IMG/VR virus record: IMGVR_UViG_2667527789_000020
Coordinates: 1 to 19,197 of that record
Length of the DNA stretch: 19,197 bases
Origin: a virus
Taxonomy: Duplodnaviria > Heunggongvirae > Uroviricota > Caudoviricetes
Direction: 5' to 3' (one strand)
Shown: positions 1 to 17,797 of the stretch, in pieces
How the letters are laid out: each line of letters opens with the position of its first letter
Position numbering within the stretch: position 1 is the first letter of the stretch
The notes under the pieces: model-generated
What the model was told of the DNA's origin: nothing
Database searches by the model: none
What the model saw: the letters and a program-made list of their open reading frames with translations, nothing else
Translations under genes and position numbers: made by a program

Positions 1-1020
1 CTACTTGCTGACCACAAGTGGCAAATCCAGTGTCGGCGTGATTTTTGTTTTACGATCATAAATCAACACCTGATTTTCTGTTTTATGTCCACTGAAAATC
101 TGTTTGTCGCGACTGCTTCCTTCGTAATCTGATATTCCTTTGGCTTTTATGTCATGGAAATTGCACCCAAACGGGACGCCGGATTTTTTCTCGGCTGCGT
201 GTTTAGCCTGGTTCCACCAGTTGTTTAGCGTTTTAGCTATGACCTTCCCGCCCTTGGTTGTGTTGATCACATATTCACATGTGCCTGAAGATACATTTCT
301 GGCTAACTGGATCGCGGTTCGTAATCGTGGAGACCATTCCTTGATTTGTTTGGTGCCGGTCTTGTTTTGCTCAATGTAGATTCCTTTATCCATAATATCC
401 TGCCATTTCAGCTCGAGCACATCACCGAGTCTTGCCGCACAAAGATAGGATATCTCCATTGCAATGCGTAACTGTGGTATTGCTTCCGCATATATCGCCG
501 CATACTGTTCATCTGTGATGTAAACAGTGCGGGCTTTAAGCGTAAATTTCCTGACTCCTTTGCATGGGTTATTCTTCACATATCCACGCTCATATCCCCA
601 CCCGTATACACGACTGAGACTTGCCAGTTCATGGTTTGCCTGGGTCTTGCTCTCAATCCCCCGTTTATCCATGAAAATTCTTACCTGCTCAATTTTTACA
701 TTATCAGCCAGTACTTTTCCGAAGACTGCCAGTAACGCCCTCTGATGTTGCCGATAATCTTTTTGGGTTCTGGGGGCCAGTTCTGTAAATGCGGGGGAAT
801 CCATAAACATGTGCCATAATTTAGCGACGGTCATTATGTTGTGGCGTTTTGCTTTTTCCAGTTCATAATTCTGCCAGACTTTAGCTATGCTGGTTTCCCG
901 CACTCTTCCTAGCCCTATAGTTTTTGTGCTTCCTTCGGGTTTCCATACGTAACTGTAACCATTCGATCTAACACGTGGCGGTAGTGCATTATCTTTTTTG
1001 TTTTTTCTTGGTCTTCCCAT
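1..1020 (-). CDS. int: Tyrosine recombinase, lambda-Int family phage integrase (339 aa)
   Basis: Complete ORF. N-terminus MGRPRKNKKD...PPRVRSNGYSY...GLGRVRE parallels the lambda Int arm-binding domain. C-terminal half carries the catalytic Arg (AARLGD), an HDIK box and GHKTE...VLIYDR containing the nucleophilic Tyr. Sits at the prophage end followed by an overlapping xis-like gene. Confidence 0.93.
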   Translation of the reverse strand: MGRPRKNKKDNALPPRVRSNGYSYVWKPEGSTKTIGLGRVRETSIAKVWQNYELEKAKRHNIMTVAKLWHMFMDSPAFTELAPRTQKDYRQHQRALLAVFGKVLADNVKIEQVRIFMDKRGIESKTQANHELASLSRVYGWGYERGYVKNNPCKGVRKFTLKARTVYITDEQYAAIYAEAIPQLRIAMEISYLCAARLGDVLELKWQDIMDKGIYIEQNKTGTKQIKEWSPRLRTAIQLARNVSSGTCEYVINTTKGGKVIAKTLNNWWNQAKHAAEKKSGVPFGCNFHDIKAKGISDYEGSSRDKQIFSGHKTENQVLIYDRKTKITPTLDLPLVVSK

Positions 1021-1240
1021 TGTTCAGCGCCTCAAAATCGGGGTCAGCAGAAACCAGTTCAGATACTTTCGGTATCGCAGTCAGTCCGCGCGGGACATCA
1101 CTGCGAAGAACTATTGGTTCGTTTTTAGGACCGGGTACAAATGGGATACCGTGCAACCTTAACTGTTGTTGCTGTTTTGTATACCGTTCGTATCTCGTGA
1201 TCTCTTGAATTTCTGCTGGCGATAGAGTTAATTCGTACAT
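989..1240 (-). CDS. Putative excisionase / recombination directionality factor (83 aa)
   Basis: ATG at 1240; small basic protein with a K/R-rich C-terminus whose 3' end overlaps the int start by 32 bp, the classic xis-int arrangement. No recognisable similarity to lambda Xis, so the call rests on position only. Confidence 0.45.
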   Translation of the reverse strand: MYELTLSPAEIQEITRYERYTKQQQQLRLHGIPFVPGPKNEPIVLRSDVPRGLTAIPKVSELVSADPDFEALNNGKTKKKQKR

Positions 1241-1306
1241 GTGGTCACGTGCCTTACAGCATGACCGCCGCCACTATAGCTTGTGGGCGGCGATATGGGT
1301 TGAACA

Positions 1307-5923: not shown

Positions 5924-6006
5924 TTACAAATTAAAATTTAACTGGTCAACATGTTTATTATTAAATTTGTAATTGCGAGCTGTTGCATTAGTCCCAAAAT
6001 GGGACT
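5924..6006. promoter_or_regulatory. Candidate operator/promoter region (OL-like, divergent leftward promoter and higBA promoter)
   Basis: AT-rich. Inverted repeat TTACAAATT (5924-5932) / AATTTGTAA (5964-5972), and a second perfect palindrome AGTCCCA-aaa-TGGGACT (5990-6006) immediately upstream of higB. The TTACAAAT half-site recurs in the repressor/cro intergenic region. Confidence 0.4.
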
Positions 6007-6017
6007 ACTATACAGTT

Positions 6018-6320: not shown

Positions 6321-6322
6321 GC

Positions 6323-6682
6323 ATGAACATCAAACCTATTCGTACAGAGCAAGATTATGAAGCCGCGTTGCGTGCTGTTGAACCCATGTTCGACAATGAG
6401 CCCGAAATTGACACGCCTGAGGGGGATTTTTTTGAGGTGATGTGTTTGCTAATAGAGGAATATGAAAAAAAACATTATCCCATTGAGCCACCATCCCCAA
6501 TTGAAGCTATAAGATTTCGCATGGAACAGCAGGGGCTGACTGTGAAAGATTTGGAACCCGCAATTGGGAAAAAAAATCGGGTTTATGAGGTGTTGAATGG
6601 TACCAGAAGCCTTACGTTACCAATGATTCGCCGTCTTCATAATCAATTTGGTATCCCCCTGGAAAGCCTGGTTGGATTATAA
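6323..6682 (+). CDS. higA: Antitoxin HigA (XRE-family HTH), 119 aa
   Basis: Acidic N-terminal part and C-terminal HTH (LTVKDLEPAIGKKNRVYEVLNGTRSLTLPMIRRLHNQFGIPLESLV). Toxin-first gene order with a 2-bp spacing is typical of higBA. Confidence 0.85.
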   Translation: MNIKPIRTEQDYEAALRAVEPMFDNEPEIDTPEGDFFEVMCLLIEEYEKKHYPIEPPSPIEAIRFRMEQQGLTVKDLEPAIGKKNRVYEVLNGTRSLTLPMIRRLHNQFGIPLESLVGL

Positions 6683-6697
6683 AATCTGCTAGTCATT

Positions 6698-6746
6698 TGC
6701 CTGATGCTCGTTCCAGAAAAGGAATGCATCAGGCAGTTTTGTTTTT
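6698..6746 (+). terminator. Rho-independent terminator after higA (convergent with the repressor 3' end)
   Basis: TGCCTGATGC (6698-6707) pairs with GCATCAGGCA (6726-6735), with an inner TTCC/GGAA stem, followed by GTTTTGTTTTT. Overlaps the stop codon of the minus-strand repressor gene. Confidence 0.6.
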
Positions 6747-7121
6747 CTGCCGCAGTAACTCTTCAAGTTTCCGTTTATAGAAATCGCGTTTTTGCTCCAT
6801 ATCACGAATGATCTGCTCTGCGTCGCTTTGAGGTAACTCATCTAAAAGCGATATGATTTTTCGTTGTTGTTCTGTAAGTTGCGGTTGGTTGTCATTACTG
6901 GATACAGCCATTTTATCGCCGAGAGTTTCTTCTTCCATAAAGAACCAATGGACGGGATGTTGTGAGAGCTCTGCTAATTTTTCCAGTTTATCCATTCTTG
7001 GCATCACGCCTTTCAACCAACCTTGCACGGATTGGGGTTTTACACCAAGACGTCTTCCCAGCTCTGACTGGTTTATATTCAATTCCTGCAACACCTGCTG
7101 AAGGCGTTTTACAAAGATCAT
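6729..7121 (-). CDS. DicA-like prophage repressor (N-terminal XRE HTH, C-terminal coiled-coil), 130 aa
   Basis: HTH LQQVLQELNINQSELGRRLGVKPQSVQGWLKG, then a charged helical tail (EQQRKIISLLDELPQSDAEQIIRDMEQKRDFYKRKLEELLRQ) with the same architecture as DicA. No S24 peptidase domain. ATG at 7121 preferred (GAGGGG, 5-nt spacer) over the in-frame GTG at 7127. Divergent from the cro-like gene. Confidence 0.8.
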   Translation of the reverse strand: MIFVKRLQQVLQELNINQSELGRRLGVKPQSVQGWLKGVMPRMDKLEKLAELSQHPVHWFFMEEETLGDKMAVSSNDNQPQLTEQQRKIISLLDELPQSDAEQIIRDMEQKRDFYKRKLEELLRQKNKTA

Positions 7122-7176
7122 CACCACCCCTCGTAAACTAGTTCCGCGATCCTACAGAAAAAATTGATAAGTGGCA

Positions 7177-7214
7177 TTACAAATAGAAGTTGAAATTTAA
7201 ATTTAAATTTGTAA
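7177..7214. promoter_or_regulatory. Candidate operator (OR-like) in the repressor/cro divergent promoter region
   Basis: Inverted repeat TTACAAAT (7177-7184) / ATTTGTAA (7207-7214) flanking three tandem AAATTT units. Lies in the 126-bp intergenic space between the repressor start and the ydaS-like start. Confidence 0.4.
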
Positions 7215-7247
7215 TCATCGGTGTCATCGTAAAGTTCGGAGGGAAAC

Positions 7248-7508
7248 ATGCAAAAAAGTACTCAAGTGAAAATCCTGTCAATAATGAGCCAATCAGAATT
7301 AGGGCGTCGTCTTGGTAAAACACCGCAAACCATAAGTGGGTGGTTTAAAAAACGAGTGCCAGCGGAGGAGGTTATACCAGCATGTGAGGCGCTTGACTGG
7401 GGAGTAACTCCGCATGAATTGCGCCCTGATAAATACCCTAATCCAACCGATGGTTTACCTGTTGAGTATCAGGCTAACGCACAAGCAGCGGCGGGAGTTG
7501 ATTCATGA
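7248..7508 (+). CDS. ydaS: Cro-like HTH protein, YdaS family (86 aa)
   Basis: SQSELGRRLGKTPQTISGWFKKRVPAEEVIPACEALDWGVTPHELRPDKYP matches the YdaS/Cro-like pattern (LG.TPQ..S.W...VPAE.V...E......HELRPD.YP). ATG preceded by GGAGGG. Divergent from the repressor. Confidence 0.7.
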   Translation: MQKSTQVKILSIMSQSELGRRLGKTPQTISGWFKKRVPAEEVIPACEALDWGVTPHELRPDKYPNPTDGLPVEYQANAQAAAGVDS

Positions 7509-7942
7509 AAATCAAGCATGAGCACATCCGCATGGCGATGAATGCGTGGCTGCTTTATCCGAGGGTAGGGCGCAAAAAAATCGCTGATGATATAGCGACA
7601 GCATATTTTGAGCTTGAAATGACTTATCCACCAATGCATGACACCTCTACGACAGAGGGTATTGGATTGAATATACAAAATATTTTTCGCTGGCTTGAAA
7701 AGGATACGCCTGATGCTGTTGAAAAAATTCAGGCACTAATTCCGGCTATCCTGACTGTTCTTCCGCGTGAACTGCGTTATCACCTCAGTATTTTTGACAC
7801 TGTTGAGCGCCGTGCATTACTGGCGGCGCAGGAAGCGTTGAGCACGGCAATTGATGCACATGATGATGCTGTCCAGGCCGTTTACCGGAAAGCGTATTTC
7901 AGCGACGGCGGGTCATCCGGCGAGTCTGTTGTGGTGCATTGA
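7505..7942 (+). CDS. ydaT: YdaT-family protein (CII-like regulator / putative toxin YdaT), 145 aa
   Basis: Begins MKIKHEHI; C-terminal LIPAILTVLPRELRYHLSIFDTVERRALLAAQEALSTAIDAHDDAVQAVYRKAYFSDGGSSGESVVVH matches Rac YdaT as I recall it. ATGA overlap with the ydaS-like stop. Confidence 0.7.
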   Translation: MKIKHEHIRMAMNAWLLYPRVGRKKIADDIATAYFELEMTYPPMHDTSTTEGIGLNIQNIFRWLEKDTPDAVEKIQALIPAILTVLPRELRYHLSIFDTVERRALLAAQEALSTAIDAHDDAVQAVYRKAYFSDGGSSGESVVVH

Positions 7943-8028
7943 TATTTATGCCAGCCCCCTGCTGATTCTGTTGATTGGGGAATCACAGAATATCACCAGA
8001 GGATGGTTCGTCACAAGATGAGGCAATT

Positions 8029-9039
8029 ATGGCCGCATTACCATACATGCAACTGTACATAGCTGATTACCTAGCTGACACCATGCATTTGTCCGCAGAG
8101 GAGCACGGTGCGTATTTGTTGCTGATGTTCAATTACTGGCAAACAGGGAAACCAATACCTAAAAACAGGCTGGCAAAAATTTCCCGTCTGACTAACGAGC
8201 GATGGGCTGATGTGGAACCATCCTTGCGGGAGTTTTTTTGCGATAACGGCGATGAATGGGTGCATCTTCGGATTGAGGAAGATCTGGCATCAGTCAGGGA
8301 AAAATTAACCAAAAAATCAGCCGCCGGAAAAGCATCTGTTCAGGCCAGAAGAAGCAGAAAGGAAGCATATGTTCAAACAAAACAAGAGAGAGATTTAACA
8401 GGCGTTCAAACAAATGTTGGTGTTGTGTTTGAACATGACGCAAACACAAAAGCAACTAATAAAGATACAGATCTAAAAGAATTAAACCCCACACATAACG
8501 TGCGTGAACGCGAGAGTATTCCGACCAGTGAGTCGCATGGTGCGCCGTTGCAGACAGCCGAACCTGAATACCTGGACGGCCTGAGCGAACCGATCGGGAA
8601 ATTTTCGATGACCACTGTCTGGCAGCCGTCGCCGGATTTTCGACAACGGGCAGCAGTGTGGGGTATGGCTCTGCCTGAGCCGGAATTTACACCTGCTGAG
8701 CTTGCCGCATTCCGGGATTACTGGATGGCGGAGGGGAAGGTTTTCACACAGGTTCAGTGGGAGCAGAAATTTGCCCGCCACGTGCAGCACGTCAGGGCAC
8801 AGGTAAAACCAGTCAGCAAGGGGGGAAGCCATGCAGCATCAGGTGGCACGGCATCACGGGCAATTCAGGAAATCCGGGCAGCACGCGAACAGTGGGAACG
8901 AGACAACGGATTTATCAGCAACGGAAACGGCCTGGAAGCTGTGGGAGCTTATGGGGGAGGTGTATTCGAACCGCTGGACTCAGAAGAACGGGGCCGCACC
9001 TTCGAAGCTCTGGATTGCCCAGATTGGTGCGATGACTGA
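8029..9039 (+). CDS. Replication initiation protein, YdaU-like (DUF1376 N-terminal domain, DnaT-like C-terminal region)
   Basis: ATG at 8029 preceded by GAGG with a 5-nt spacer; the six-frame ORF starts at a TTG at 7975. N-terminus YMQLYIADYLADTMHLSAEEHGAYLLLMFNYWQTG is the DUF1376 signature. C-terminal half (SMTTVWQPSPDFRQRAAVWG...FTPAELAAFRDYW) resembles DnaT-like domains. Confidence 0.7.
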   Translation: MAALPYMQLYIADYLADTMHLSAEEHGAYLLLMFNYWQTGKPIPKNRLAKISRLTNERWADVEPSLREFFCDNGDEWVHLRIEEDLASVREKLTKKSAAGKASVQARRSRKEAYVQTKQERDLTGVQTNVGVVFEHDANTKATNKDTDLKELNPTHNVRERESIPTSESHGAPLQTAEPEYLDGLSEPIGKFSMTTVWQPSPDFRQRAAVWGMALPEPEFTPAELAAFRDYWMAEGKVFTQVQWEQKFARHVQHVRAQVKPVSKGGSHAASGGTASRAIQEIRAAREQWERDNGFISNGNGLEAVGAYGGGVFEPLDSEERGRTFEALDCPDWCDD

Positions 9040-9493
9040 ACAGCAAATCCGGCAGGTCTGTCGTCAGTGCATGGACCGCTGCCGGGCGGGTGAAACGTGG
9101 CCCCCGGACCTGGCTGAGTTTGTTGCGCTGATTTCGGAGAGTGGGGCAAATCCATTTGGTCTTACGGTGGATGCCGTGATGGAAGAGTACCGGCGCTGGC
9201 GCAATGAATCCTGGCGATACGACGGGAGTGATAAATACCCGTGGCCACAGCCTGTGCTGTACCACATCTGCCTCGAAATGCGTACCAGAGGGATTGAGCG
9301 CCAGATGACGCAGGGTGAGTTAAAACGACTTGCGGAACGGCAACTGACGAAATGGGCAAAGCATGTTGGTAACGGGATGAGTGTTCCGCCAGTGCGACGA
9401 CAACTGGAAGGGGCGAAACACCCGAAAGGGCCAACGCCAATTGAATGGCTGAAACAGGAATACGAACGCCGGAAGGCAGCTGGTTTTATTTGA
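8831..9493 (+). CDS. Lambda P-like replication protein (helicase loader family)
   Basis: PPDLAEFVALISESGANPFGLTVDAVMEEYRRWRNE...DKYPWPQPVLYHICLEMRTRG...QGELKRLAERQL parallels lambda P (PSPGQFVAWCREE...GLPNVSELVDMVYEYCRKRG...ESYPWKSNAHYWL...TDAELRRKAADEL). ATG at 8831 has a strong SD (AAGGGGGGAAG) but overlaps the upstream gene by 209 bp in another frame. Alternative starts are 8951 and 9032. Confidence 0.6.
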   Translation: MQHQVARHHGQFRKSGQHANSGNETTDLSATETAWKLWELMGEVYSNRWTQKNGAAPSKLWIAQIGAMTEQQIRQVCRQCMDRCRAGETWPPDLAEFVALISESGANPFGLTVDAVMEEYRRWRNESWRYDGSDKYPWPQPVLYHICLEMRTRGIERQMTQGELKRLAERQLTKWAKHVGNGMSVPPVRRQLEGAKHPKGPTPIEWLKQEYERRKAAGFI

Positions 9494-9526
9494 ATCTGAG
9501 AAGCGATTTTGTAGGAGGAAATTTTA

Positions 9527-10288
9527 ATGGAAACCGTTTTTGACGCACTGAAAGCAATGGGAAAAGCCAGCTCTGTTGGACTGGCTGAGCGGCTTGATAT
9601 CAGTCGTGAAGAGGTTCTCAACGAACTGTGGGAACTCAAAAGAAATGGCGTTGTTGATAAAGCGGGTCACATCTGGTTTCTGGCTGGCGAAGGTGAATCC
9701 GGGGTAACCGAAGAGCAGCCAGAACAGTCTGAAGTACCGGATGTGCTGACCGGGGAGGTCGAACAAAAAGTTACCGCAGACATGATGATTGAGTTTATCG
9801 GTCAGGAGGGGGCTAAAACGTGTGAGGAACTGGCGGATAAGTTCGGTGTTAGCATTCGCAAGGTTGCTTCCACGTTGGCGGTGGTAACCGCAACGGGACG
9901 CCTGGCACGCGTAAATCAGAACGGTAAATTTCGTTACTGCATGCCGGGCGATAATTTACCAGCAGAGCCGAAAGCCGTGCCGGTAACGGAAAATGATGGT
10001 AAGGCCTTTCCTCAGCCAGCAGGTGTTGCGTTACCAGTACAGGAATCTGCAACACAGGAAGATATTAAAACAGAAACAGTGGCGGACATTGTGCAGTCGT
10101 TGCCATCGTTTACCGAAACGCAAGCAGATGAGCTGATTTTTCTGTCCCTGTGCAGGGCAAACCTGGCGCTGCGCAGGGCGAAAAGTGATGTTCAGAAGTG
10201 GGAGCGAGTCTGTGCCGCGCTGCGGGAACTGAACAAACACAGGGATATTCTCCGGGATATTACCGCCACCAGAGAGCTGCTGCGGTGA
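9527..10288 (+). CDS. Hypothetical protein with two tandem winged-helix-like modules (253 aa)
   Basis: ATG preceded by AGGAGG. Two internally similar segments ([30 protein letters not shown] and [32 protein letters not shown]) look like wHTH units. Function unknown. Confidence 0.65.
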
Positions 10289-10320
10289 GTGGCTGGAAGA
10301 AGTGGCGCTGGGCGGAAATT

Positions 10321-10602
10321 ATGATACTCCGGCAGTGTGCGGGAACGATGACAGTCGAAAGCATCGGCAGTCTGATTGGCCGTAGTGGGGCTGCCGTCAG
10401 GACGAAAGCGCGGGAACTGGGTATCTGCATGATGTTACGGGGTGATTATCACCAGTCAGCCAAATGTTCACAGCGTGATATTGAGCTGGCGCGGCAACTG
10501 CATCAGCGTGGCGTACCCCGACGGGAAATTGCCGAAAAGTTTGGGATGAAGTTGGGCGCAGTGAATAACTACGTTTATTTCGACAGGAGGGTTCAGGCGT
10601 GA
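10321..10602 (+). CDS. Small HTH-domain protein
   Basis: Two HTH-like segments (TVESIGSLIGRSGAAVRTKARELGI and VPRREIAEKFGMKLGAVNNYV). Start is uncertain: GTG 10285 overlapping the upstream stop, ATG 10321 or ATG 10342, all with weak RBS. Confidence 0.5.
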   Translation: MILRQCAGTMTVESIGSLIGRSGAAVRTKARELGICMMLRGDYHQSAKCSQRDIELARQLHQRGVPRREIAEKFGMKLGAVNNYVYFDRRVQA

Positions 10603-10904
10603 GGGTGAGAATTTATATCGCCGGTCCGATGACGGGATATGAAAATTTCAACCGTGAGGCGTTTCACAGGGCGGAAGAAGCACTGAAACGGGAAGGGCAT
10701 ACCGTTTTAAACCCGGCAGTACTTCCGGACGGACTGACACAGCCACACTACATGGATATTTGCATGGCGATGATACGCTGCGTGGATGCGATTTACATGC
10801 TGAAAGGCTGGCAGCGGTCGGCAGGCGCTAAGGCAGAACTGGCACTGGCGGAGAAACTGGGACATGCGGTTATTTTCCAGGAGGCAACCAGTGAGAAAAA
10901 TTAA
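10599..10904 (+). CDS. DUF4406-family protein (nucleoside 2-deoxyribosyltransferase-like fold), 101 aa
   Basis: GTG start overlapping the upstream stop (GTGA), preceded by AGGAGG. N-terminal MRVRIYIAGPMTGYENFNREAF is the characteristic DUF4406 signature. Confidence 0.7.
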   Translation: MRVRIYIAGPMTGYENFNREAFHRAEEALKREGHTVLNPAVLPDGLTQPHYMDICMAMIRCVDAIYMLKGWQRSAGAKAELALAEKLGHAVIFQEATSEKN

Positions 10905-11541
10905 TTATCAGACGCTACGTGAGATAGCAAAACTGGCAACCCAGGGCGAATGGGTCGCATTCATTTCGCCGGGCACTGATACATATGCGGTGCATACGCC
11001 GGGGGATGAACGTTGCGGAGACATTATCAAATGGCCTGGCTTTGATGACCAGAAAAATGCAGAGAACAACGCAGAATTTATTGCAGCTTTCAACCCTGAA
11101 GTAGTACAGGCACTGCTGGATGAACGGGAAGCCCAAAGCAAACGTATTGCAGAGCTGGAAGCTAATCTTGTGGCGCTGGCGGCGGAGAATGCACTTGCTC
11201 GTAAAGCAGTTCAGGCATTCTGCGATGTTGTTGGCGACAACACCGAGGTTATCTGCGAGGAGGTTGGGAGAGATGGCGTTCTGGTTATTTTGGAGGCCAT
11301 GAAGGCAACAGGAAATATGCCAGCCACCGATGCTTTCCTGTCTGAAGTGCGGGCGCTGGGGGTGGATGCTGCTATAGAAGCTGCAAAAAATCTGGTGGCC
11401 CAAGAATATGAGTATAAGGATTTCAAAGCGGCGCAGAGTGATTGCTGTATGCACCCTGGTTCAGACCTGATAGGGAAGGTTGAAATGACTGAGTGGTTAG
11501 TTGACTTTGCTGCCCAGCTTCGCAAAGGAGTTCAGTCATGA
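10891..11541 (+). CDS. ead/Ea22-like family protein
   Basis: GTG start (AGGAGG, 6-nt spacer) giving VRKINYQTLREIAKLATQGEW..., the Ea22-like N-terminal motif, followed by a coiled-coil segment (AQSKRIAELEANLVALAAENALARKAV). The six-frame ORF begins upstream at 10864 inside the DUF4406 gene. Confidence 0.6.
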   Translation: MRKINYQTLREIAKLATQGEWVAFISPGTDTYAVHTPGDERCGDIIKWPGFDDQKNAENNAEFIAAFNPEVVQALLDEREAQSKRIAELEANLVALAAENALARKAVQAFCDVVGDNTEVICEEVGRDGVLVILEAMKATGNMPATDAFLSEVRALGVDAAIEAAKNLVAQEYEYKDFKAAQSDCCMHPGSDLIGKVEMTEWLVDFAAQLRKGVQS

Positions 11542-11867
11542 GAGCTTCAATTAGTTATGTCGACGATTGCCACCTAAGCGTGCGTGTTGATGAAATTGTG
11601 TCATCCGTGCCAACTTTTCCGACAAAAAATGCAGCCGTTAATGCAGGCGCGCCATTCGGATGGAGGACGGCAGTTCGTATTGAGCGTCGATTCGAAAACG
11701 TTTGGGTGGTAGGTAAGAAATGCTTCCAAAGCGATCGCTCTGCGGGGCTTAATTTTGAAGCATATCGATTCCCGTTCCTCCGATGGGAGAAAGAGGGCGG
11801 GATTACAAAATGCCCGATTCTTTCCGTGCGCAGATTCAAGCAGGAGGCAACCAGTGAGCAAGATTGA
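11538..11867 (+). CDS. Hypothetical protein (109 aa)
   Basis: ATGA overlap with the upstream stop. Its C-terminus (...KQEATSEQD) is encoded by the same 18-bp junction sequence that forms the C-terminus of the DUF4406 gene (...FQEATSEKN), which suggests a genuine gene at a module joint. Confidence 0.4.
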   Translation: MRASISYVDDCHLSVRVDEIVSSVPTFPTKNAAVNAGAPFGWRTAVRIERRFENVWVVGKKCFQSDRSAGLNFEAYRFPFLRWEKEGGITKCPILSVRRFKQEATSEQD

Positions 11868-12198
11868 CTATCAGGTATTGCGTGAGGCAGCACAAAACTA
11901 TCGGTCGATGCTGGCGTGGTATCAGGAGAAACCAGACAGTCCAAACGCTGAGCAGGATTGTGATGCAGCTTTGGCTGCGTTTAAGCGTGAAATCCGTCAT
12001 CGTGAAGTGGGTATTATCGCTGATTTGCTGGATGAACTGGAGGAAGCAAAACAGCGTATCGACGAGCAGGAGTCCCGCATAGTGAAGTTACCAGAACCAT
12101 TCAAGCTGGCTAAATCATCAAGTGGATTAACGTACTACTACGCTGATGAGGTCAATGCCGCACTGACTGCTGCTGGTATTCGCATAGAAGGAGAGTGA
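11854..12198 (+). CDS. Ea22-like N-terminal-motif protein (114 aa)
   Basis: GTG start within the repeated junction. VSKIDYQVLREAAQNY parallels VRKINYQTLREIAKLA of the upstream Ea22-like gene, followed by a coiled-coil segment (LDELEEAKQRIDEQESRIVKL). Confidence 0.5.
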   Translation: MSKIDYQVLREAAQNYRSMLAWYQEKPDSPNAEQDCDAALAAFKREIRHREVGIIADLLDELEEAKQRIDEQESRIVKLPEPFKLAKSSSGLTYYYADEVNAALTAAGIRIEGE

Positions 12199-12199
12199 G

Positions 12200-12553
12200 A
12201 TGACCACTATTACCAAAGAGCGACTGCAATGGCTGGCTAACATTTCTGGCCGCGATGACATTGACGATATAGACGGCGGTGAAATTCGTGAGCTGGCGCT
12301 TATCGCGCTGGCATCGCTGGAAGCGAAGCCTGTAGCTTCATGTATTATTGAAGATGGGGGCATGTGTGTTGACGGGTTCGGTGAGTATGTTGGTCACTCG
12401 CTGCCTGATGGAACGCACCAGCTTTACGCCGCCCCGCCAGTGCCTAGTAAGTTGCCGCGTGAATACAGAAACGGTTGGCCTCTTGCATATAGTGATTATG
12501 CTGAAGGCTGGAACGACTGCCGCGAAGCCATGCTTCAGGGAGATAAATCATGA
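12200..12553 (+). CDS. Hypothetical protein (117 aa)
   Basis: ATG preceded by GGAGAG, 1 bp after the upstream stop; the downstream gene starts with an ATGA overlap. No recognisable domain. Confidence 0.55.
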   Translation: MTTITKERLQWLANISGRDDIDDIDGGEIRELALIALASLEAKPVASCIIEDGGMCVDGFGEYVGHSLPDGTHQLYAAPPVPSKLPREYRNGWPLAYSDYAEGWNDCREAMLQGDKS

Positions 12554-12912
12554 TTAATCGTATCAAGCTGGAGCACATCCTCGAATATGCCAGGCAGCAG
12601 AAGCATACTGGTCAGCATTGTAAAATTCCACCAGGGGATATGGTTGAAATCATGGAGATTGCCATGCGCAAGGCTGGCAATTCTCCGGTAACTCCGGATG
12701 GTTGGATAAGCTGTAGTGAGCGAATGCCGAATACCAAAACAGCCGTTCTTGTTGCCGTGGAGTTTGACAGGAAAGGTGACTGGCGAATGAAATGGGCTAC
12801 TTACATCCCGGGGCATCATGACGCTAATGATGGGTGGATAATTCCTGGTGCGTCGTGGAAACCGTCACACTGGATGCCGCTACCAGAACCGCCGAAGGAG
12901 GTGCGCCAATGA
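12550..12912 (+). CDS. DUF551-domain protein (120 aa)
   Basis: C-terminal DGWISCSERMPNT...VLVAV...W......W...SHWMPLPEPP is the characteristic DUF551 signature of lambdoid nin-region proteins. Confidence 0.65.
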   Translation: MINRIKLEHILEYARQQKHTGQHCKIPPGDMVEIMEIAMRKAGNSPVTPDGWISCSERMPNTKTAVLVAVEFDRKGDWRMKWATYIPGHHDANDGWIIPGASWKPSHWMPLPEPPKEVRQ

Positions 12913-13138
12913 GCTGGCCTGAGGCCTTCTCAAATGTTGGTATTGCAATGGCGCTGGTGGTGTATTCGATTTGCCGCTGGGGATAAAAACGGTTTGCGGG
13001 GAAAGAAGAGTTAAGTAGAATTGCTGCGGGTGCCTGAGGCTGTCTGCCTCAGGCATGAACACCAAAAGGCAGATAGAGAAAGCCCCAGTTAACATTACGC
13101 GTCCTGTAAGACGCTCAACATTAATCTGAGGCATATGG

Positions 13139-14263
13139 ATGCGGATGAAAGAATTAAATAAATTCAGAGTGATAGACCTCTTTTGTGGGGCAGGTGGATT
13201 ATCTTATGGTTTTCTTCATGGAGAGATGTCTGACTACTTTGAAAGTATCCTTGCTATTGATAATAATGCTGCAGCTATAAATACCTACAATGCCAATTTT
13301 GGTTTGCATGGAGTTCAGGCAAATATTGAGGAGTGGGCATCCAGCAATACTGTTCCTGAGGCTGATGTGGTCATAGGTGGCCCCCCGTGTCAGGGATTCA
13401 GTTTATTGAATAAGAATCGTTATGGTGATCACCGAAGAGCATTGTGGGAGCCTTATATGGATGTCATTGAGCGTTCAAGGGCTTGCATGTTCGTCATGGA
13501 AAATGTCCCCGGATTGCTGATAAGCGATGAGTTTGCGGACATTACGTTTAGAGCGAAATCCATGGGCTTTATTCTGCTTAATCCAATGGTGTTGAATACT
13601 GCTGACTATGGAGTACCTCAGACAAGAAAACGAACGATAGCAATCGGTATCAAACGAGAACTCTTCGATGAGCATAGTATTCCGGCGTTCCCGCCAGCAC
13701 CAACGCATCGTTCCCCTGATAAGGATGTCGCTTTGCCTGAATGGGTCTGTACGCGTGATGCAATTGGTGACTTACCTGCTCCTGTTGGAACTGATATTCG
13801 TAATGAACTTCCTCCGCTGAACTTACATTTTGGGCGTAATCCCACACCTGTTTCTCTGGAGCGATATAAAGCGGTTCCACCAGGAGGTAACCGTTTCGAT
13901 TTACAGAAAAAAAGACCTGATATAACCCCGGCGTGCTGGCTAAAAAAGAAATCTGGAGGGACCGATTTGTTTGGACGTCTGTGGTGGGACAGACCTTCAG
14001 TAACGATTCGTACTGAGTTTTTCAAACCGGAGAAAGGGCGATATTTACATCCGGAAGAGGATCGGCCAATAACTCATCGTGAGGCAGCGAGATTAATGTC
14101 TTTTCCTGATAATTTCATTTTTACCGGTTCAAAAACTGAGATTGCAAAGCAGATCGGGAATGCTGTTCCACCGCTATTTGCGGCAAAAATCGCACAATAT
14201 GTGTATGGAGTTTTGCAGGGACGGTATAAGAATAACATCAGTAAGAATAGTCAAGCAGCCTGA
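13139..14263 (+). CDS. DNA (cytosine-5)-methyltransferase, modification subunit of a Type II R-M system (374 aa)
   Basis: Motif I DLFCGAGG (FxGxGG), motif IV GGPPCQGFS (catalytic PC), motif VI ENV, motif X-like QIGNAVPPLFAAKIA. ATG preceded by GAGG with a 7-nt spacer. Visibly more AT-rich than the flanking phage genes. Confidence 0.9.
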   Translation: MRMKELNKFRVIDLFCGAGGLSYGFLHGEMSDYFESILAIDNNAAAINTYNANFGLHGVQANIEEWASSNTVPEADVVIGGPPCQGFSLLNKNRYGDHRRALWEPYMDVIERSRACMFVMENVPGLLISDEFADITFRAKSMGFILLNPMVLNTADYGVPQTRKRTIAIGIKRELFDEHSIPAFPPAPTHRSPDKDVALPEWVCTRDAIGDLPAPVGTDIRNELPPLNLHFGRNPTPVSLERYKAVPPGGNRFDLQKKRPDITPACWLKKKSGGTDLFGRLWWDRPSVTIRTEFFKPEKGRYLHPEEDRPITHREAARLMSFPDNFIFTGSKTEIAKQIGNAVPPLFAAKIAQYVYGVLQGRYKNNISKNSQAA

Positions 14264-14276
14264 AGGAAATCCAGAA

Positions 14277-15154
14277 ATGAATGGAGATTTGGTTGACAGC
14301 ATAGTTGGTTTTGCTGAAGCCAGAAAGGAGTTTCATGCCCAATTGTTACTGAATACGCTCACAATTAATACTGCCGGAGTTGTTAGTAACGCAGATAGCA
14401 GTAACAAAAACAGTAAAGCTATAGCAAGAGAAATTGCTCGCTTCTTGCAGGCTGAAACGATTGGTGAACGTGTTGCAGGGCAAACATCTGGTAATCAGTT
14501 TGAGAGTATCTGCGCAGAGTTTATAAAAAAACCTTTTTTAAACTCAGCCACTTACGCCCTGGGAAATGGAATGTATATCAGGTTTCTGGTAGAAACAGAT
14601 TAGAGATAGCTAAATATGAACAATATGCCCATCTTATAGCATTGGATAGTGCTGCAAAAAGTAATCCTCAGCTAGCTGCTGCACTGGGGAGTGATTATAC
14701 GATTTCACCAGATATTATTGTTGAAAGAGAACCTGAATGCGATCAAGTTATCAACAGTCCTGAATTACTGGTGGATGATTCTGTTACCCGCATGTCAGCT
14801 CTCAGGAGTTCGAATGGTGGGAAACCAATATTACACGCAAGTATTTCCTGCAAATGGACAATAAGAAGCGACCGGGCCCAGAATGCTCGTTCTGAGGCAT
14901 TAAATCTTATTCGCAACCGTAAGGGAAATCTCCCTCATGTAATGGTTGTTACTGCTGAGCCTACTCCAAGTCGTCTGGCGTCTATTGCTCTTGGTACTGG
15001 TGATATAGATTGCGTGTACCATTTTGCGCTTTATGAACTTATATCAGCAGTTGAAATACTGGGGCTCAGCGATGCAGCTGACATGCTTTCCGTGATGGTT
15101 AATGGTAAAAGATTAAAGGATATTTCTGATCTTCCCTTGGATCTTGCAGTCTGA
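14277..15154 (+). pseudogene. Type II restriction endonuclease, Cfr10I/NgoMIV-like, reading frame split by a 1-nt shift in a homopolymer region
   Basis: N-terminal piece 14277-14603 (frame 3) and C-terminal piece open from 14504 to 15154 (frame 2) overlap around an A7 tract (14525-14531) and a T6 tract (14534-14539). The C-terminal piece carries SPD-X46-SCK-X13-E (SPDIIVERE...HASISCKWTIRSDRAQNARSE), matching the PD-X46-55-K-X13-E active-site arrangement of the Cfr10I/NgoMIV family. Starts 14 bp after the C5-methyltransferase stop. Joined length is about 290 aa, typical for this family. Confidence 0.6.
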
Positions 15155-15226
15155 CATCTCTATGTAAATAGAGTCTGTCATATTTTAACTGTGATGGCAC
15201 GTCATTGACTTCAGTACATTTTTACT

Positions 15227-15252
15227 AACCTGCTTCGCGGGTTTTGTTTTTT
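15227..15252 (+). terminator. Rho-independent terminator downstream of the R-M cassette
   Basis: AACCTGC-ttc-GCGGGTT stem (7 bp with one G-U pair) followed by TTGTTTTTT. A weaker hairpin (GACA.CTCTA / TAGAG..TGTC) lies directly after the endonuclease stop at 15153-15179. Confidence 0.55.
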
Positions 15253-15324
15253 CCTGGCATTCTGGTTTACAATCCACACGCCAGCCTGAACAACTGGCAC
15301 CTGCTGCGCCAGCAGAGACAACCG

Positions 15325-15597
15325 ATGGCGCACAATACCAAACACCACAATTCTGATACCGACCCTGCCAGCAGGTACGGGCGGCGTTCTCACACATTCA
15401 AATCTGACTGGTTCCAGCATGACCCATGCACTGAAGAACAGGCCGAATGGCTGATCCAGTGTTACCGCAGGCGCGGATATGAGTTTGAGAAAGCCCTCAG
15501 CCTCGATTATCGTCACTGGATAATCTCTGTCAGGCTCCCTTATTCCGAACGCCCACCTCGTCCGTCCCGCACATTCCAGCAGCGCATCTGGAGGTAA
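15325..15597 (+). CDS. Hypothetical protein, translationally coupled to the DUF968 gene
   Basis: Stop at 15595-15597 lies 1 bp before the DUF968 ATG. The six-frame ORF starts at 15244 inside the terminator, so the internal ATG at 15325 (MAHNTKHH...) is preferred. RBS is weak and no domain is recognised. Confidence 0.4.
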   Translation: MAHNTKHHNSDTDPASRYGRRSHTFKSDWFQHDPCTEEQAEWLIQCYRRRGYEFEKALSLDYRHWIISVRLPYSERPPRPSRTFQQRIWR

Positions 15598-15598
15598 C

Positions 15599-16657
15599 AT
15601 GCGGGTATTACTTCGACCTGTTCTGGTACCGGAACTCGGGATGGTGGTCCTTAAGCCGGGTCGTGAATCAATGTCAGCATTCCATAACGGCAGAATATTG
15701 GTGGAGCCGGAACCGAAAAACATGCGCGGTCTGCCGTCCGGAGTCGTTCCCGCCGTTCGACAGCCGCTGGCAGAGGATAAAACATTACTGCCATTTTTCA
15801 GCAACGAACGGGTGATTCGTGCTGCGGGTGGCGCTGGTGCACTGTCTGACTGGTTATTACGTCACGTGAAATCCTGCCAGTGGCCACACGGCGATTATCA
15901 TCACAGCGAAACCGTTATTCACCGTTACGGTGCTGGCGCAATGGTGTTGTGCTGGCACTGTGACAACCAGCTGCGCGACCAGACATCAGAATCACTCGAT
16001 CAACTTGCTCAGCAGAATCTGGTTGCCTGGATGATTGACGTCATCCGTCATGCAATAAGCGGTACGCAGGAGAGGGAGTTATCGCTGGCCGAATTATCCT
16101 GGTGGGCGGCCTGCAATCAGGTGGTGGATGCACTACCTGAGGCAGTAGCGCGTCGTTCGCTGGGATTACCGGTGGAAAAAATCCGCTCCGTATACCGTGA
16201 GAGTGACATCGTACCGGGAGAACAGACAGCCATCAGCATACTGAAGCAGCGCACAAAAAATATTGCGCTGCCACTTCACGTCCACCAGCAACAGCCCCCA
16301 CCCCAGGAAAAGACGTTAGTAAGCATCGCCGTTGATCCGGAGTCTCCGGCTCAGTACCTCCAGCGCCAGAAACCACAACGGGAAGAGATGCCTGTATACA
16401 CGCGCTGGGTAAAAACGCAGAAATGCATGACGTGTGGCAATCAGGCAGATGATCCGCATCACATCATTGGTCATGGACTGGGAGGCATGGGAACAAAGGC
16501 TGACGATTTGTTTGTTATTCCGTTATGCCGTAAATGCCATAACGAACTACATGCCGGAGTAAAAGATTTTGAAGAGAAACACGGCAGTCAGCTGTTGTTG
16601 CTGATTCGTTTTTTAATGCACGCGAGAAATTCGGGTGTTCTGAAGTGGAAAGCATAA
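15599..16657 (+). CDS. DUF968-domain protein (YdfU-like) with C-terminal HNH-like Cys/His motif, 352 aa
   Basis: ATG preceded by GGAGG. C-terminus CMTCGNQADDPHHIIGHGLGG...LCRKCHNELH is an HNH/zinc-finger-like CxxC...HH...CxxH arrangement. Sits immediately upstream of rusA, as ydfU-like genes do in lambdoid prophages. Confidence 0.8.
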   Translation: MRVLLRPVLVPELGMVVLKPGRESMSAFHNGRILVEPEPKNMRGLPSGVVPAVRQPLAEDKTLLPFFSNERVIRAAGGAGALSDWLLRHVKSCQWPHGDYHHSETVIHRYGAGAMVLCWHCDNQLRDQTSESLDQLAQQNLVAWMIDVIRHAISGTQERELSLAELSWWAACNQVVDALPEAVARRSLGLPVEKIRSVYRESDIVPGEQTAISILKQRTKNIALPLHVHQQQPPPQEKTLVSIAVDPESPAQYLQRQKPQREEMPVYTRWVKTQKCMTCGNQADDPHHIIGHGLGGMGTKADDLFVIPLCRKCHNELHAGVKDFEEKHGSQLLLLIRFLMHARNSGVLKWKA

Positions 16658-17026
16658 ATGACCGAGCGCATAGAATTTGTTTTGCCTTACCCGCCGACGG
16701 TGAACACTTACTGGCGACGCCGTGGCAGCACATATTTTGTATCAAAATCCGGGGAGCGTTATCGCCGGGCAGTGGCACTTATTGTTCGCCAGCAGCAGTT
16801 GAAATTAAGCCTGTCCGGACGGCTGGCAATAAAAATTATTGCAGAACCACCGGATAAGCGCCGCCGTGACCTGGACAATATTCTGAAAGCACCGCTGGAT
16901 GCGCTGACGCACGCGGGGTTGTTAATGGACGATGAACAGTTTGATGAAATCAATATTGTACGTGGTCAGCCAGTATCTGGTGGACGGCTGGAAATAAGAA
17001 TTACAGAGGTGGGTGTGCATGAATAA
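16658..17026 (+). CDS. rusA: Holliday junction resolvase RusA (crossover junction endodeoxyribonuclease), 122 aa
   Basis: LPYPPTVNTYWRRRG...DKRRRDLDNILKAPLDALTHAGLLMDDEQ...GGRLEIRITEVG matches E. coli RusA (LPWPPSNNRYYR...[22 protein letters not shown]...GGRLELTITEMG), including the catalytic Asp cluster. Confidence 0.9.
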   Translation: MTERIEFVLPYPPTVNTYWRRRGSTYFVSKSGERYRRAVALIVRQQQLKLSLSGRLAIKIIAEPPDKRRRDLDNILKAPLDALTHAGLLMDDEQFDEINIVRGQPVSGGRLEIRITEVGVHE

Positions 17027-17708
17027 CCAGTATTTACAGTTTGTTCGTGAGCAACTCATGATTGCCACTGCAGATCTCAGTGGGTCGACAAAAGGCCAGC
17101 TGGAAGCCTGGCAGGAAAATGCCCTGTTCGATACAGGGCGTTACAGACGCAAAAAAATTCGTTACCGCGATGAGGTAACCGGAAAAATGATCACGCGGGA
17201 TAATCCCCCGATCCAGGGTAAACAATCACTGGCGAAAGGCTCATCAATTGCGCTGGTCAGTCCTGTTGAGTTTGCAACATCATCGTGGCGGCGTGCCCTT
17301 CTGGAACTGGAAGAACATCAGAAGGCGTGGTTGTTGTGGTGTTATGGCGGAAACATTTGCTGGGAGCATCAGATCGCGATAACGCAGTGGGTGTGGAGTG
17401 AATTTAAAACTCAGTCCGGCTCCAGAAAAATTGCAGTGAAAACGCTGGAGCGTGTGAAGAAGTTGATCTGGCTGGCGGCACAGGATGTCAGAGGATGGGT
17501 TACCGGGTGTGAGGTCTACCAGAGACAGGAGCTTGCCAGACTGTGTGGAGTTAAGCCTGATAACTGGAGCCATAATTATGCGAACTACTGGCGTGAGATG
17601 TGCGATATTTTTAAGCGTCTCGATAGAGAATCCTTGATTTGCTCCGTGAAAATAAGAGCGCAACAAAAAGCGACCTTTTCACGACGAGATATTGCAAAAG
17701 TCAATTAA
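17019..17708 (+). CDS. Putative late-gene antitermination protein Q (Qin/QuuQ-like), 229 aa
   Basis: ATG at 17019 overlaps the rusA stop (the six-frame ORF starts at GTG 17013). Position immediately after rusA and immediately upstream of a strong terminator is the canonical Q location. Family assignment is by position and size, not by recognised motifs. Confidence 0.55.
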   Translation: MNNQYLQFVREQLMIATADLSGSTKGQLEAWQENALFDTGRYRRKKIRYRDEVTGKMITRDNPPIQGKQSLAKGSSIALVSPVEFATSSWRRALLELEEHQKAWLLWCYGGNICWEHQIAITQWVWSEFKTQSGSRKIAVKTLERVKKLIWLAAQDVRGWVTGCEVYQRQELARLCGVKPDNWSHNYANYWREMCDIFKRLDRESLICSVKIRAQQKATFSRRDIAKVN

Positions 17709-17770
17709 ATCGCGTATGTTTCGTATAAATCTGATATTTTGCCGATTTTGTACACGATGGCAAAGTAAGA

Positions 17771-17797
17771 AAAAACCACCGCCAGGTGGTTTTTTTA
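17771..17797 (+). terminator. Rho-independent terminator (tR'-like) downstream of the putative Q gene
   Basis: AAAAA-ACCACC-gcca-GGTGGT-TTTTTTT: a 7-bp stem flanked by an A-run and a T7 run, 63 bp after the Q stop. Confidence 0.7.

Follow-up and report, generated by a model that had tools for sequence, protein, structure and literature searches.

The gene at positions 15599..16657 (plus strand) of the analyzed window, a 19,197-nucleotide stretch of caudoviral DNA, is an unremarkable copy of ydfU (DUF968), one of the very common prophage genes. Its product appears to be a YdfU-family lambdoid prophage protein built of three parts, namely an N-terminal domain, a flexible linker, and a C-terminal HNH domain. 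The balance of the evidence tilts toward an accessory DNA endonuclease of the YdfU type that carries an N-terminal domain with a probable zinc site and a linker and is encoded at the end of the nin operon. The HNH assignment itself is not new (PMC5714182, PMC4118853); it was published in 2014–2017 together with the RusA/Q neighborhood, "HNH endonuclease" is already the label of the gene in GenBank phages, and on these points nothing is added to the existing annotation. Three observations go beyond the earlier note on this DNA: a Cys/His tetrad in the N-terminal domain, a mosaic joint relative to K-12 ydfU, and a homolog, PdcB of phage P1, that has lost its catalytic histidines.

The open reading frame encodes 352 residues between an ATG start and a TAA stop and exists exactly as previously described. 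It is real and under purifying selection: measured against 31 close alleles, the median dN/dS is 0.12 for the gene and 0.025 for the C-terminal domain, where selection is strongest. The Pfam DUF968 model (PF06147) covers residues 160–344 (model positions 1–169 of 171) with 211.1 bits against a cut-off of 27.8, placing the protein in the DUF968/YdfU family above the gathering threshold. Of 5426 complete E. coli genomes, 4538 contain a match to the ydfU–rusA region, at up to nine places per genome, and the carriers include Stx-converting phages.

Residues ~238–352 (16310..16654, plus strand) form a C-terminal HNH, or His-Me finger, domain and, as judged by profile searches and the AlphaFold2 domain model, belong to the His-Me/HNH superfamily. 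Significant similarity to known HNH profiles and structures comes from several sources. Pfam HNHc_6 is matched with 31.9 bits (cut-off 26.6), PHROG 96 "HNH endonuclease" over the full length (E 2e-163), and PHROGs 131, 7370, and 144 under the same name. The profile of the domain aligns with K-12 YbcO at an hhalign probability of 78% (E 1.8e-5) and, among PDB sequences, with 3g27 (E 0.009) and EcoKMcrA (E 0.05); the PDB-sequence alignments superpose the HH pair, D303 (on Asn), and CxxCHxxLH. The family-wide profile yields zero matches to PDB sequences. A published classification places DUF968 and DUF1364 in group 7 of the His-Me superfamily and lists RusA and Q as their neighbors (Jablonska 2017, PMC5714182).

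Structure prediction and comparison with HNH nucleases, which the earlier note had proposed as a check, returns an HNH-like fold and supports the HNH reading. The AlphaFold2 model contains a beta-beta-alpha unit with strands at 285–288 and 306–309 and a helix at 311–319 (core pLDDT >90), and the C-terminal domain modeled alone reaches a pLDDT of 90.9; the beta-beta-alpha-metal topology is thus present in the predicted structure. When the domain model is compared with the PDB by Foldseek, the best 13 matches are all HNH nucleases, P1 Ref among them, the best having an E of 0.03 and none being individually significant. The structure 3g27 itself is absent from these matches, and the full-length model retrieves nothing from the PDB below E 1. 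In BFVD, the matching folds belong to small proteins of the DUF968, HNH, Ref-like, and endonuclease VII types, and standalone phage proteins of ~110 residues match the C-terminal domain with a TM of 0.77 (E 9e-8).

The C-terminal HNH-like Cys/His motif claimed previously is found in the form C276xxC279…H287H288…D303…C310xxC313-H314xxxH318. Of its earlier spelling, "CxxC...HH...CxxH," the first parts hold, and the last part is really CxxCH-x3-H. The core, defined by sequence and alignment, comprises C276xxC279, D284-D285-P-H287-H288, D303, C310xxC313-H314, and H318 (16424..16552, plus strand). Judging by its conservation, the motif is no chance pattern, because the pentad H287/H288/D303/H314/H318 is retained in 68 of 74 representatives of 50%-identity clusters and the tetrad C276/C279/C310/C313, with C or H at the fourth position, in 57 of 71 cluster representatives. 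The four cysteines conform in sequence to the CxxC...CxxC signature of the zinc-finger HNH subclass, and the catalytic histidine at the end of strand 1 and the metal ligands of the helix are present as H287-H288, H314, and H318. The central Asn of the H-N-H signature is missing; its position is occupied by D303, which is invariant (77 of 77 representatives). The same variant is found in YbcO (PPDL), and since the Asn position varies across the His-Me superfamily (PMC5714182), the Asp does not exclude superfamily membership.

EcoKMcrA (6ghc), the Gme HNH protein (4h9d), the HNH domains of Cas9/IscB, Cap5, and colicin E9 share with the window protein the arrangement CxxC...HH...(N/D)...CxxCH...H and the predicted beta-beta-alpha fold. 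Zinc-finger HNH nucleases are its best PDB matches in fold and sequence, all of them marginal (E 0.03–1). Compared with the classical members, the window protein has Asp for Asn, a longer GHGxGGMGTK loop between the strands, and an unrelated N-terminal partner domain. As modeled, residues ~238–352 would be a beta-beta-alpha-metal nuclease domain held by a Cys4-type zinc site consisting of C276, C279, C310, and C313. By alignment with McrA, and by comparison with colicin E9, the general base would be H288 and the ligands of the catalytic metal would be H287, H314, and H318, with D303 in place of the HNH Asn. In the literature searched, no report of nuclease activity was found for YdfU/DUF968, YbcO, or PdcB.

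Residues 1–158 (15599..16072, plus strand) constitute a separate conserved domain with neither a Pfam family nor a convincing structural match. PHROG 11007 ("unknown function") spans residues 2–135, and the Pfam search gave nothing at E<0.08; a YnfU match on the N-terminal motif (E 0.11) is not significant. The AlphaFold2 pLDDT is mostly 80–96, and Foldseek comparison with the PDB and BFVD returns only small HNH-type proteins plus noise. Gram-positive DUF968 members have been described as an Orf/NinB-HNH fusion (Curtis et al. 2014). For the N-terminal domain, homology to Orf/NinB was rejected: the hhalign probability of the family profile against lambda NinB is 0.05%, and there is no Pfam NinB match. 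Fusions of this domain to tail-fiber, collar, or J domains (P0173, P0175, P0147, and P0224) were likewise discarded as functional clues and are interpreted as remnants left by prophage deletions or as chimeras of assembly.

Conservation and the predicted structure suggest that C93, H101, C118, and C121 (15875..15961, plus strand) probably form a second, structural zinc site. The tetrad is predicted to sit in a hairpin (105–110 and 113–118) followed by a helix (119–125). C93 and C118 are nearly invariant, and positions 101 and 121 each hold either C or H in every sequence and swap between the two: the pattern is CHCC in 34 sequences, CCCH in 25, CHCH in 10, and CCCC in none. With a probable zinc site of its own, the domain may confer specificity for a DNA substrate or a partner. 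The middle region and linker (residues 159–237; 16073..16309, plus strand), where the Pfam DUF968 model starts, contain the conserved ELxWWA...LP helices. The linker, which holds an (R/K)ESD motif, is predicted with low confidence (pLDDT <50 at residues 226–237).

The closest known system is YdfU of the K-12 Qin prophage, a member of His-Me finger group 7. The two proteins are 79% identical over 348 residues, equal in length, and alike in their three-part architecture and in both Cys/His motifs, and both genes lie in a nin-to-Q region with the small open reading frame 1 nt upstream. However, the N-terminal 240 residues are ~90% identical, whereas the HNH domains share only ~62% identity, a contrast suggestive of a recombination joint within the linker, near the end of the middle region. 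Further differences are CRKHH in K-12 YdfU for CRKCH in the window protein and the gene that follows, which in K-12 is Q (ydfT), without rusA.

YbcO of K-12 DLP12 (DUF1364; PDB 3g27) falls in the same His-Me subgroup as the C-terminal domain, the profile match spanning H-x-I-x-x-G...GTK-x-x-D...C-x-x-C-H-x-E. With 96 residues, it is a nuclease module only and lacks the N-terminal domain and linker; its gene lies directly upstream of rusA with a 4-nt overlap. P1 PdcB is a full-length homolog (25.5% identity over residues 12–348) in which the N-terminal motifs CQ...C...LCWHHDN and WWA persist, while H288, H314, and H318 are gone, as is the GGMG loop. It is encoded immediately upstream of the late-gene activator lpa, with no rusA nearby. 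P1 pdcB is non-essential (PMC10695390), and pdcB::kan lysogens have been recovered (PMC10067587).

PdcB is not the only decayed member of the family. The catalytic histidines are also lost in P0195, P0200, and P0228, and the cysteines in Vibrio phage Len and P0183, with the N-terminal domain kept in each case. This domain is conserved from lambdoid phages through P1 to Vibrio phages even where the nuclease is dead, and such losses imply that the conserved function of the family may not be catalysis. Points that speak against the endonuclease reading are the lack of any activity report in the literature searched, the weak fold matches (best PDB Foldseek E 0.03, with 3g27 absent), the exchange of Asn for Asp, and these decayed branches.

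Two other members of the His-Me superfamily, lambda Rap/NinG and P1 Ref, serve phages as accessory nucleases; the searches showed no family-level sequence relationship of either to the window protein. Membership in the NinG/Rap family was rejected, as only 18 columns around CxxCG...H align, at a probability of 6.9%. Rap/NinG has the nin-region neighborhood in common with the window gene, and in the samples, NinG and group-7 genes are mutually exclusive. For P1 Ref (3plw), there is a fold-level Foldseek match with TM 0.46/0.48 and a weak E of 0.87 and no Pfam match; a Ref-like protein in BFVD is also a weak fold match (E 0.12).

The gene forms a block with a small open reading frame, rusA, and Q that is bracketed by terminator-like hairpins in a consensus scan. 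The upstream edge of the block is a putative terminator, proposed by analogy with the lambda nin-region terminators, which consists of a hairpin and a T-run (15227..15253, plus strand) between a restriction-modification module and the small gene. The latter (15325..15597, plus strand) encodes 90 residues from its ATG, the frame being open from TTG 15244, and corresponds to a hypothetical CDS of 273 bp in the E. coli ECA64 annotation. Its long form matches PHROG 1212 at residues 52–117 (E 2.4e-37), with no match in Pfam or NCBIfam. It is specific to the close clade, being found in 74 of 78 close loci versus 9 of 78 diverse loci.

The small gene ends with TAA at 15595–15597, one base before the DUF968 ATG at 15599, and this 1-nt gap recurs in 61 of 78 close loci. 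A Shine-Dalgarno sequence, GGAGG (15590..15594, plus strand), can be read within the end of the small gene, 4 nt before the ATG. The DUF968 stop codon (TAA, 16655–16657) is followed with zero gap by the ATG of rusA (16658..17026, plus strand), which encodes a 122-residue protein of the Holliday-junction resolvase family (Pfam RusA, PF05866, E 2.9e-17; PHROG 34). The end of rusA overlaps by 8 nt, as is also annotated in E. coli ECA64, the start (ATG 17019) of the late-gene antiterminator Q (17019..17708, plus strand; Pfam Phage_antiter_Q, E 3.7e-83). The gene occupies the distal end of the delayed-early nin operon, immediately ahead of Q, and would share a transcript, and possibly translational coupling, with the small gene, rusA, and Q. 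The abutments reported in the earlier note are thus accurate, but their use as a sign of one functional unit does not stand: a possible start lies within −14..+2 of the previous stop at ~12 of 20 same-strand junctions of the early operon, making abutment generic there and not a specific signal.

The association with rusA depends on the distance considered. Among close relatives, rusA is directly downstream in all 76 cases, with a gap of 0 in 75, and RusA is encoded within 4 kb in 76 of 80 close loci. Of 80 species-level loci, however, only 3 have rusA immediately after the gene and 12 immediately before it; in 39 it lies 650–1800 nt upstream and in 26 it is missing within 4 kb, a position about 0.7–1 kb upstream or absence being the usual state. 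An antirepressor-type gene stands between the two genes in 39. Family-wide direct adjacency, as expected of an obligate DUF968–RusA pair, is accordingly not observed. The co-occurrence analysis suggested earlier supports a looser association, which is real in these samples: in 54 of 80 diverse loci, RusA is encoded on the same strand no more than 4 kb away, and 66 of 80 K-12-type rusA genes have a YbcO/DUF968-type nuclease gene in the same range, directly upstream in about 38. The next gene in the species-level loci is most often a late-gene antiterminator Q (Phage_antitermQ 42, DUF1133 16, Antiterm 14, and Phage_antiter_Q 11), with RusA next in 3, and the position before Q is stable across many genera. 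Group-7 nucleases and RusA co-occur in the sampled loci, and neither is found alongside NinG/Rap. Eighty lambda-type NinG loci, a nearly clonal sample (98–100% identity), contain neither a DUF968/YbcO-type nuclease nor RusA, and NinG is absent from all 160 DUF968 loci (jackhmmer from NinG) and across 240 DUF968 or RusA loci; these counts are phylogenetically non-independent, all three types of gene belonging to the mosaic nin region. A paper on HusR concerns only the regulation of rusA.

These counts bear on the possibility that the DUF968 protein and RusA, perhaps with the small upstream gene product, form one DNA-processing unit in which two nucleases act sequentially on the same branched intermediates in place of Rap/NinG. 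The invariant pairing in close relatives, the association within 4 kb in diverse loci and around K-12-type rusA genes, the ybcO/rusA overlap in DLP12, and the mutual exclusion with NinG all favor it, as do the recurrence of the pairing across RusA subtypes, nuclease architectures, and gene orders and the reported DUF968–RusA fusions (PMC4118853). Yet rusA is missing nearby in 26 diverse loci, in K-12 Qin, and in P1; the antirepressor-type gene often intervenes; abutment is generic in the operon; the counts share the non-independence and clonality noted above; and RusA resolves Holliday junctions alone, according to Mahdi et al. 1996 as cited in PMC12844172. The unit is therefore possible but unlikely, and the pairing in the window is the packing of a mosaic module on top of a loose family-level association, not an obligate two-protein unit. 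A mainly non-catalytic DNA-binding or regulatory factor of the early-to-late switch, with the HNH fold as a DNA-binding module, would suit the most conserved neighbor, a late-gene regulator (Q families in lambdoid loci and Lpa in P1), the state of PdcB, and the annotation of one family member as a phage transcriptional regulator (PMC5714182). It is nevertheless improbable, given that the catalytic pentad is widely retained, that dN/dS is lowest in the HNH domain, that domain searches including Pfam detect no helix-turn-helix or other regulator domain, and that a distal position in the nin operon would by itself bring any gene next to Q.

Still less probable is a selfish or antagonistic nuclease, either a homing endonuclease of the free-standing HNH type or a nuclease carried as a moron for exclusion, anti-host, or anti-defense purposes. 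Homing endonucleases and toxins commonly contain HNH domains (PMC5714182), the gene adjoins the restriction-modification module in the window, the region can reach nine copies per E. coli genome, and mosaicism extends to the domain level. Against this, no PADLOC defense family is matched at E<=0.001 by the DUF968 protein, the small gene product, or RusA, so membership in a defense system was rejected; the syntenic place before Q is stable; homing-type DNA-binding modules are not recognizable; the clade-specific small gene leaves no conserved immunity-like partner; and the restriction-modification module is missing from most homologous loci. That the protein is a terminase-associated HNH assisting cos cleavage, as in HK97-like phages, is scarcely credible: the P1 homolog is encoded two genes upstream of pacA and pacB, but its catalytic residues are lost and P1 can dispense with it, as it cannot with pacA and pacB (PMC10695390), and the lambdoid copies lie in the nin region with Q immediately downstream.

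The accessory endonuclease thus has the largest share of the probability. By analogy with Rap/NinG and P1 Ref, its likeliest role would be to cut intermediates of phage replication or recombination as a metal-dependent DNA endonuclease that the phage can do without, gene context being the source of both the proposed substrate and the proposed role. The role is taken to be accessory because P1 pdcB is non-essential and K-12 keeps ydfU without rusA. A recombination context is suggested by RusA nearby in most diverse and close loci, by the lack of NinG in the 160 DUF968 loci, and by the role in recombination and repair hypothesized for group 7 (PMC5714182).

A broader and distinctly doubtful extension is that lambdoid phages repeatedly employ a pair of nucleases, a group-7 His-Me enzyme of the YdfU/YbcO type and RusA, in place of Rap/NinG. 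The N-terminal zinc domain might then be a new module that senses DNA structure or a partner and, shortly ahead of the late switch, guides the HNH domain to intermediates of recombination or replication. Should the nuclease prove active and cooperate with RusA, this would explain how branched DNA is processed in lambdoid phages without Rap/NinG. It would also give a function to ydfU, a y-gene that persists in E. coli, and would probably do the same for ybcO and P1 pdcB.

On the basis of an alignment of 28 diverse full-length DUF968 members (25-91% identical), an AlphaFold2 model (mean pLDDT 85.5), and partial homologues, the 352-aa DUF968 protein (window 15599..16657, + strand) falls into an N-terminal domain spanning residues 1-158, a helical middle segment with a disordered linker (159-237; pLDDT below 50 at 226-237), and a C-terminal domain (238-352). 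The latter is also found as standalone ~110-aa phage proteins (BFVD TM 0.77, E 9e-8). Relatives number 2116 at E<=1e-3 among the 1.84 billion cluster representatives searched. The reading frame, as read from the sequence, is real and is under purifying selection, with a median dN/dS of 0.12 against 31 close alleles (N-terminal domain, 0.12; middle region, 0.19; C-terminal domain, 0.025).

The C-terminal domain is supported, by profile and model, as an HNH/His-Me finger. The earlier note had described its motif as CxxC...HH...CxxH; the pattern is present, but the last element is CxxCH plus one more histidine, giving C276-x2-C279, D284-D285-P-H287-H288, D303, and C310-x2-C313-H314-x3-H318. The HNH-like character suggested there is supported by a Pfam HNHc_6 score of 31.9 bits (threshold 26.6), an end-to-end match to PHROG 96 "HNH endonuclease" (E 2e-163), and profile matches of the domain to K-12 YbcO (hhalign probability 78%, E 1.8e-5) and, among PDB sequences, to YbcO 3g27 (E 0.009) and EcoKMcrA 6ghc (E 0.05). 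In the McrA alignment, HH corresponds to H287-H288, the motif Asn to D303, and CPNCHRELH to CRKCHNELH. Of the representatives of clusters formed at 50% identity, 68 of 74 retain the whole H-H-D-H-H pentad, 77 of 77 retain D303, and 57 of 71 retain the Cys tetrad, with C or H accepted as its fourth ligand. The spacing of H288, D303, H314, and H318 (15, 11, 4) resembles that of H103, N118, H127, and H131 in colicin E9 (15, 9, 4). The domain-only model (pLDDT 90.9) predicts a beta-beta-alpha unit, made up of strands at 285-288 and 306-309 and then a helix at 311-319. Its best 13 Foldseek PDB matches are all HNH nucleases, including McrA, Cas5-HNH Cascade, Cap5, IscB, P1 Ref, and Gme HNH, with a best E of 0.03 and none individually significant. 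Profile and predicted fold together thus uphold the proposed kinship, at the level of prediction.

The HNH assignment is not new. In the classification of Jablonska et al. 2017 (PMC5714182), DUF968 and DUF1364 belong to His-Me finger group 7, and YdfU and YbcO (3g27) are named; the authors record RusA, antiterminator Q, and antirepressors among the neighbouring genes and suggest a recombination/repair function akin to that of NinG and RecA-dependent nucleases. According to Curtis et al. 2014 (PMC4118853), DUF968 has a zinc-finger HNH motif, and fusions to Erf, Rad52, and RusA occur. In 175 phage records, GenBank labels homologues "HNH endonuclease", "YdfU family protein", "DUF968 domain-containing protein", or "PdcB". 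No biochemical work on YdfU, YbcO, or PdcB turned up in the literature search.

A second Cys/His tetrad, C93, H101, C118, and C121 (residues 93-121; window 15875..15961), is absent from the earlier note and is a new observation. C93, Q94, C118, W119, and D122 are invariant or nearly so across the family. Only Cys or His occurs at positions 101 and 121, and the two swap between lineages (C-H-C-C in 34 sequences, the window's included; C-C-C-H in 25; C-H-C-H in 10; C-C-C-C in none). Such a pattern is consistent with zinc held for structural purposes on a predicted hairpin and helix (105-125), which in the model resembles a degenerate beta-beta-alpha finger; the tetrad is probably a second, structural zinc site. 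The site lies outside the Pfam DUF968 model, and neither a Pfam family nor a convincing structural neighbour was found for the N-terminal domain. Kinship with lambda Orf/NinB is rejected (probability 0.05%), so the published view of Gram-positive members as Orf-HNH fusions does not extend to it. Four database proteins (P0173, P0175, P0147, and P0224) join the first 150-230 residues of a YdfU-like protein to a tail-collar, tail-fibre, or J (tip attachment) domain. They seem not to be genuine architectures but the outcome of large prophage deletions that brought the nin region and tail genes together, or else chimeras of assembly.

The N-terminal ~240 residues of K-12 YdfU (L164, the K-12 locus, 259..1305, minus strand) are about 90% identical to the window protein, whereas the HNH domain is only ~62% identical. 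This contrast indicates a recombination joint in the linker (window ~16300..16330) and, therefore, two domains with different histories. In E. albertii (L086), a K-12-type HNH domain occurs together with a downstream rusA. Between rem and ydfU, K-12 MG1655 also carries an unannotated 92-aa ORF (L164 1307..1585, minus strand; NC_000913.3 about 1644306..1644584). This ORF is a homologue of the small gene upstream of DUF968 in the window (15325..15597, PHROG 1212) and stops 1 nt before the ydfU start, a spacing also seen in the window.

Phage P1 PdcB (L326 4468..5511, OP279344.1), listed as of "unknown function", is a full-length homologue with 25.5% identity. Its N-terminal motifs are retained, but H288, H314, H318, and the GGMG loop are gone, and its HNH domain is predicted to be catalytically degenerate. 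The gene is non-essential (PMC10695390), and pdcB::kan lysogens have been recovered (PMC10067587). In other branches, Vibrio phage Len and the database protein P0183 among them, the cysteines are lost and the histidines kept. Such losses mark the N-terminal domain as the constant part and the nuclease as dispensable in some lineages.

Both junctions noted earlier are as described. The small upstream ORF ends in TAA at 15595-15597, one base before the DUF968 ATG at 15599, with a Shine-Dalgarno GGAGG (15590-15594) within its last codons; the DUF968 stop (16655-16657) directly precedes the rusA ATG (16658), and the first 8 nt of Q (ATG 17019) lie within rusA. Pfam assigns the last three genes to DUF968 (211 bits), RusA, and Phage_antiter_Q. 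Terminator-like hairpins flank this four-gene block, at 15227..15253 (also given as 15227-15243) on its 5′ edge and at about 17770..17795 (AAAAAACCACCTGGCGGTGGTTTTTT) directly 3′ of Q. Farther upstream, an NgoMIV-family type II restriction endonuclease (14277..15154) is split by a 1-nt deletion at ~14526 (window TTTATA-AAAAAACC vs E. coli ECA64 TTTATAGAAAAAACC) into ORFs 14277..14603 and 14642..15154, which match Pfam NgoMIV_restric positions 1-72 and 108-275. It adjoins an intact C5 cytosine methyltransferase (13139..14263), and represents either a dead endonuclease with an orphaned methylase or a homopolymer sequencing error.

In the early-gene chain (5598 to 17708), about 12 of the 20 junctions between same-strand genes have a possible start at -14..+2 from the preceding stop; therefore, abutment is no specific signal here. 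Among close relatives (IMG/VR loci, at least 89% identity), rusA lies directly 3′ of DUF968 in all 76 with enough flank (gap 0 in 75), and the small upstream ORF is present in 74/78, vs 9/78 diverse loci. In the diverse set (80 loci, one genome per species, 43-91% identity), nearly all have a Q antiterminator as the next 3′ gene (Pfam hits in 77 loci: Phage_antitermQ 42, DUF1133 16, Antiterm 14, Phage_antiter_Q 11, RusA 3); DUF1133 is taken from K-12-like loci to be the K-12 YdfT/QuuQ family. The 5′ neighbour is most commonly an antirepressor (Rha/ANT 29, KilA-N 8); RusA takes this place in 10 loci, and a DNA methyltransferase does so in about 12. A sensitive RusA search of the 80 loci places rusA directly downstream in 3 and directly upstream in 12; in a further 39 the gene is 650-1800 nt upstream with the same orientation, and the remaining 26 have none within 4 kb. 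An obligate unit, as drawn from abutment, is not supported, and co-occurrence of DUF968 with rusA is partial.

K-12 Qin has ydfU then ydfT (Q) without rusA, and in K-12 DLP12 ybcO and rusA overlap by 4 nt. A YbcO/DUF968-type nuclease lies within 4 kb in 66/80 loci found via K-12-type RusA. NinG is found in 0/240 DUF968 or RusA loci (80 of them K-12-type RusA loci), and neither RusA nor a group-7 nuclease is found in any of the 80 lambda-type NinG loci. NinB/Orf is present in 77/80 NinG loci, 60/80 K-12-type RusA loci, and 0/160 YdfU-type loci. Group-7 nucleases go with RusA in these samples, and NinG/Rap and RusA plus a group-7 His-Me nuclease are mutually exclusive in the sampled loci, which are phylogenetically non-independent, the NinG set being nearly clonal.

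This co-occurrence gives the rusA "functional unit" only loose support, and a true two-nuclease unit of the DUF968 protein with RusA, given the generic abutment and the loci lacking rusA, is a minority possibility. P1 has the order phd-doc-pdcA-pdcB-lpa-pacA-pacB, with pdcB directly 5′ of the late-promoter activator lpa, paralleling DUF968-then-Q in lambdoid phages; a mainly non-catalytic or regulatory role tied to the late switch, to be set beside the widely complete pentad, is nevertheless improbable. A selfish or antagonistic nuclease, for which PADLOC gives no match, is less probable still, and a terminase helper is very improbable. The favoured and somewhat probable reading is that the DUF968 protein would be an accessory zinc-stabilised HNH DNA endonuclease, its activity being predicted. 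Expressed from a delayed-early operon within the small ORF-DUF968-rusA-Q block, it would act on phage replication or recombination intermediates, with specificity supplied by the N-terminal zinc domain.
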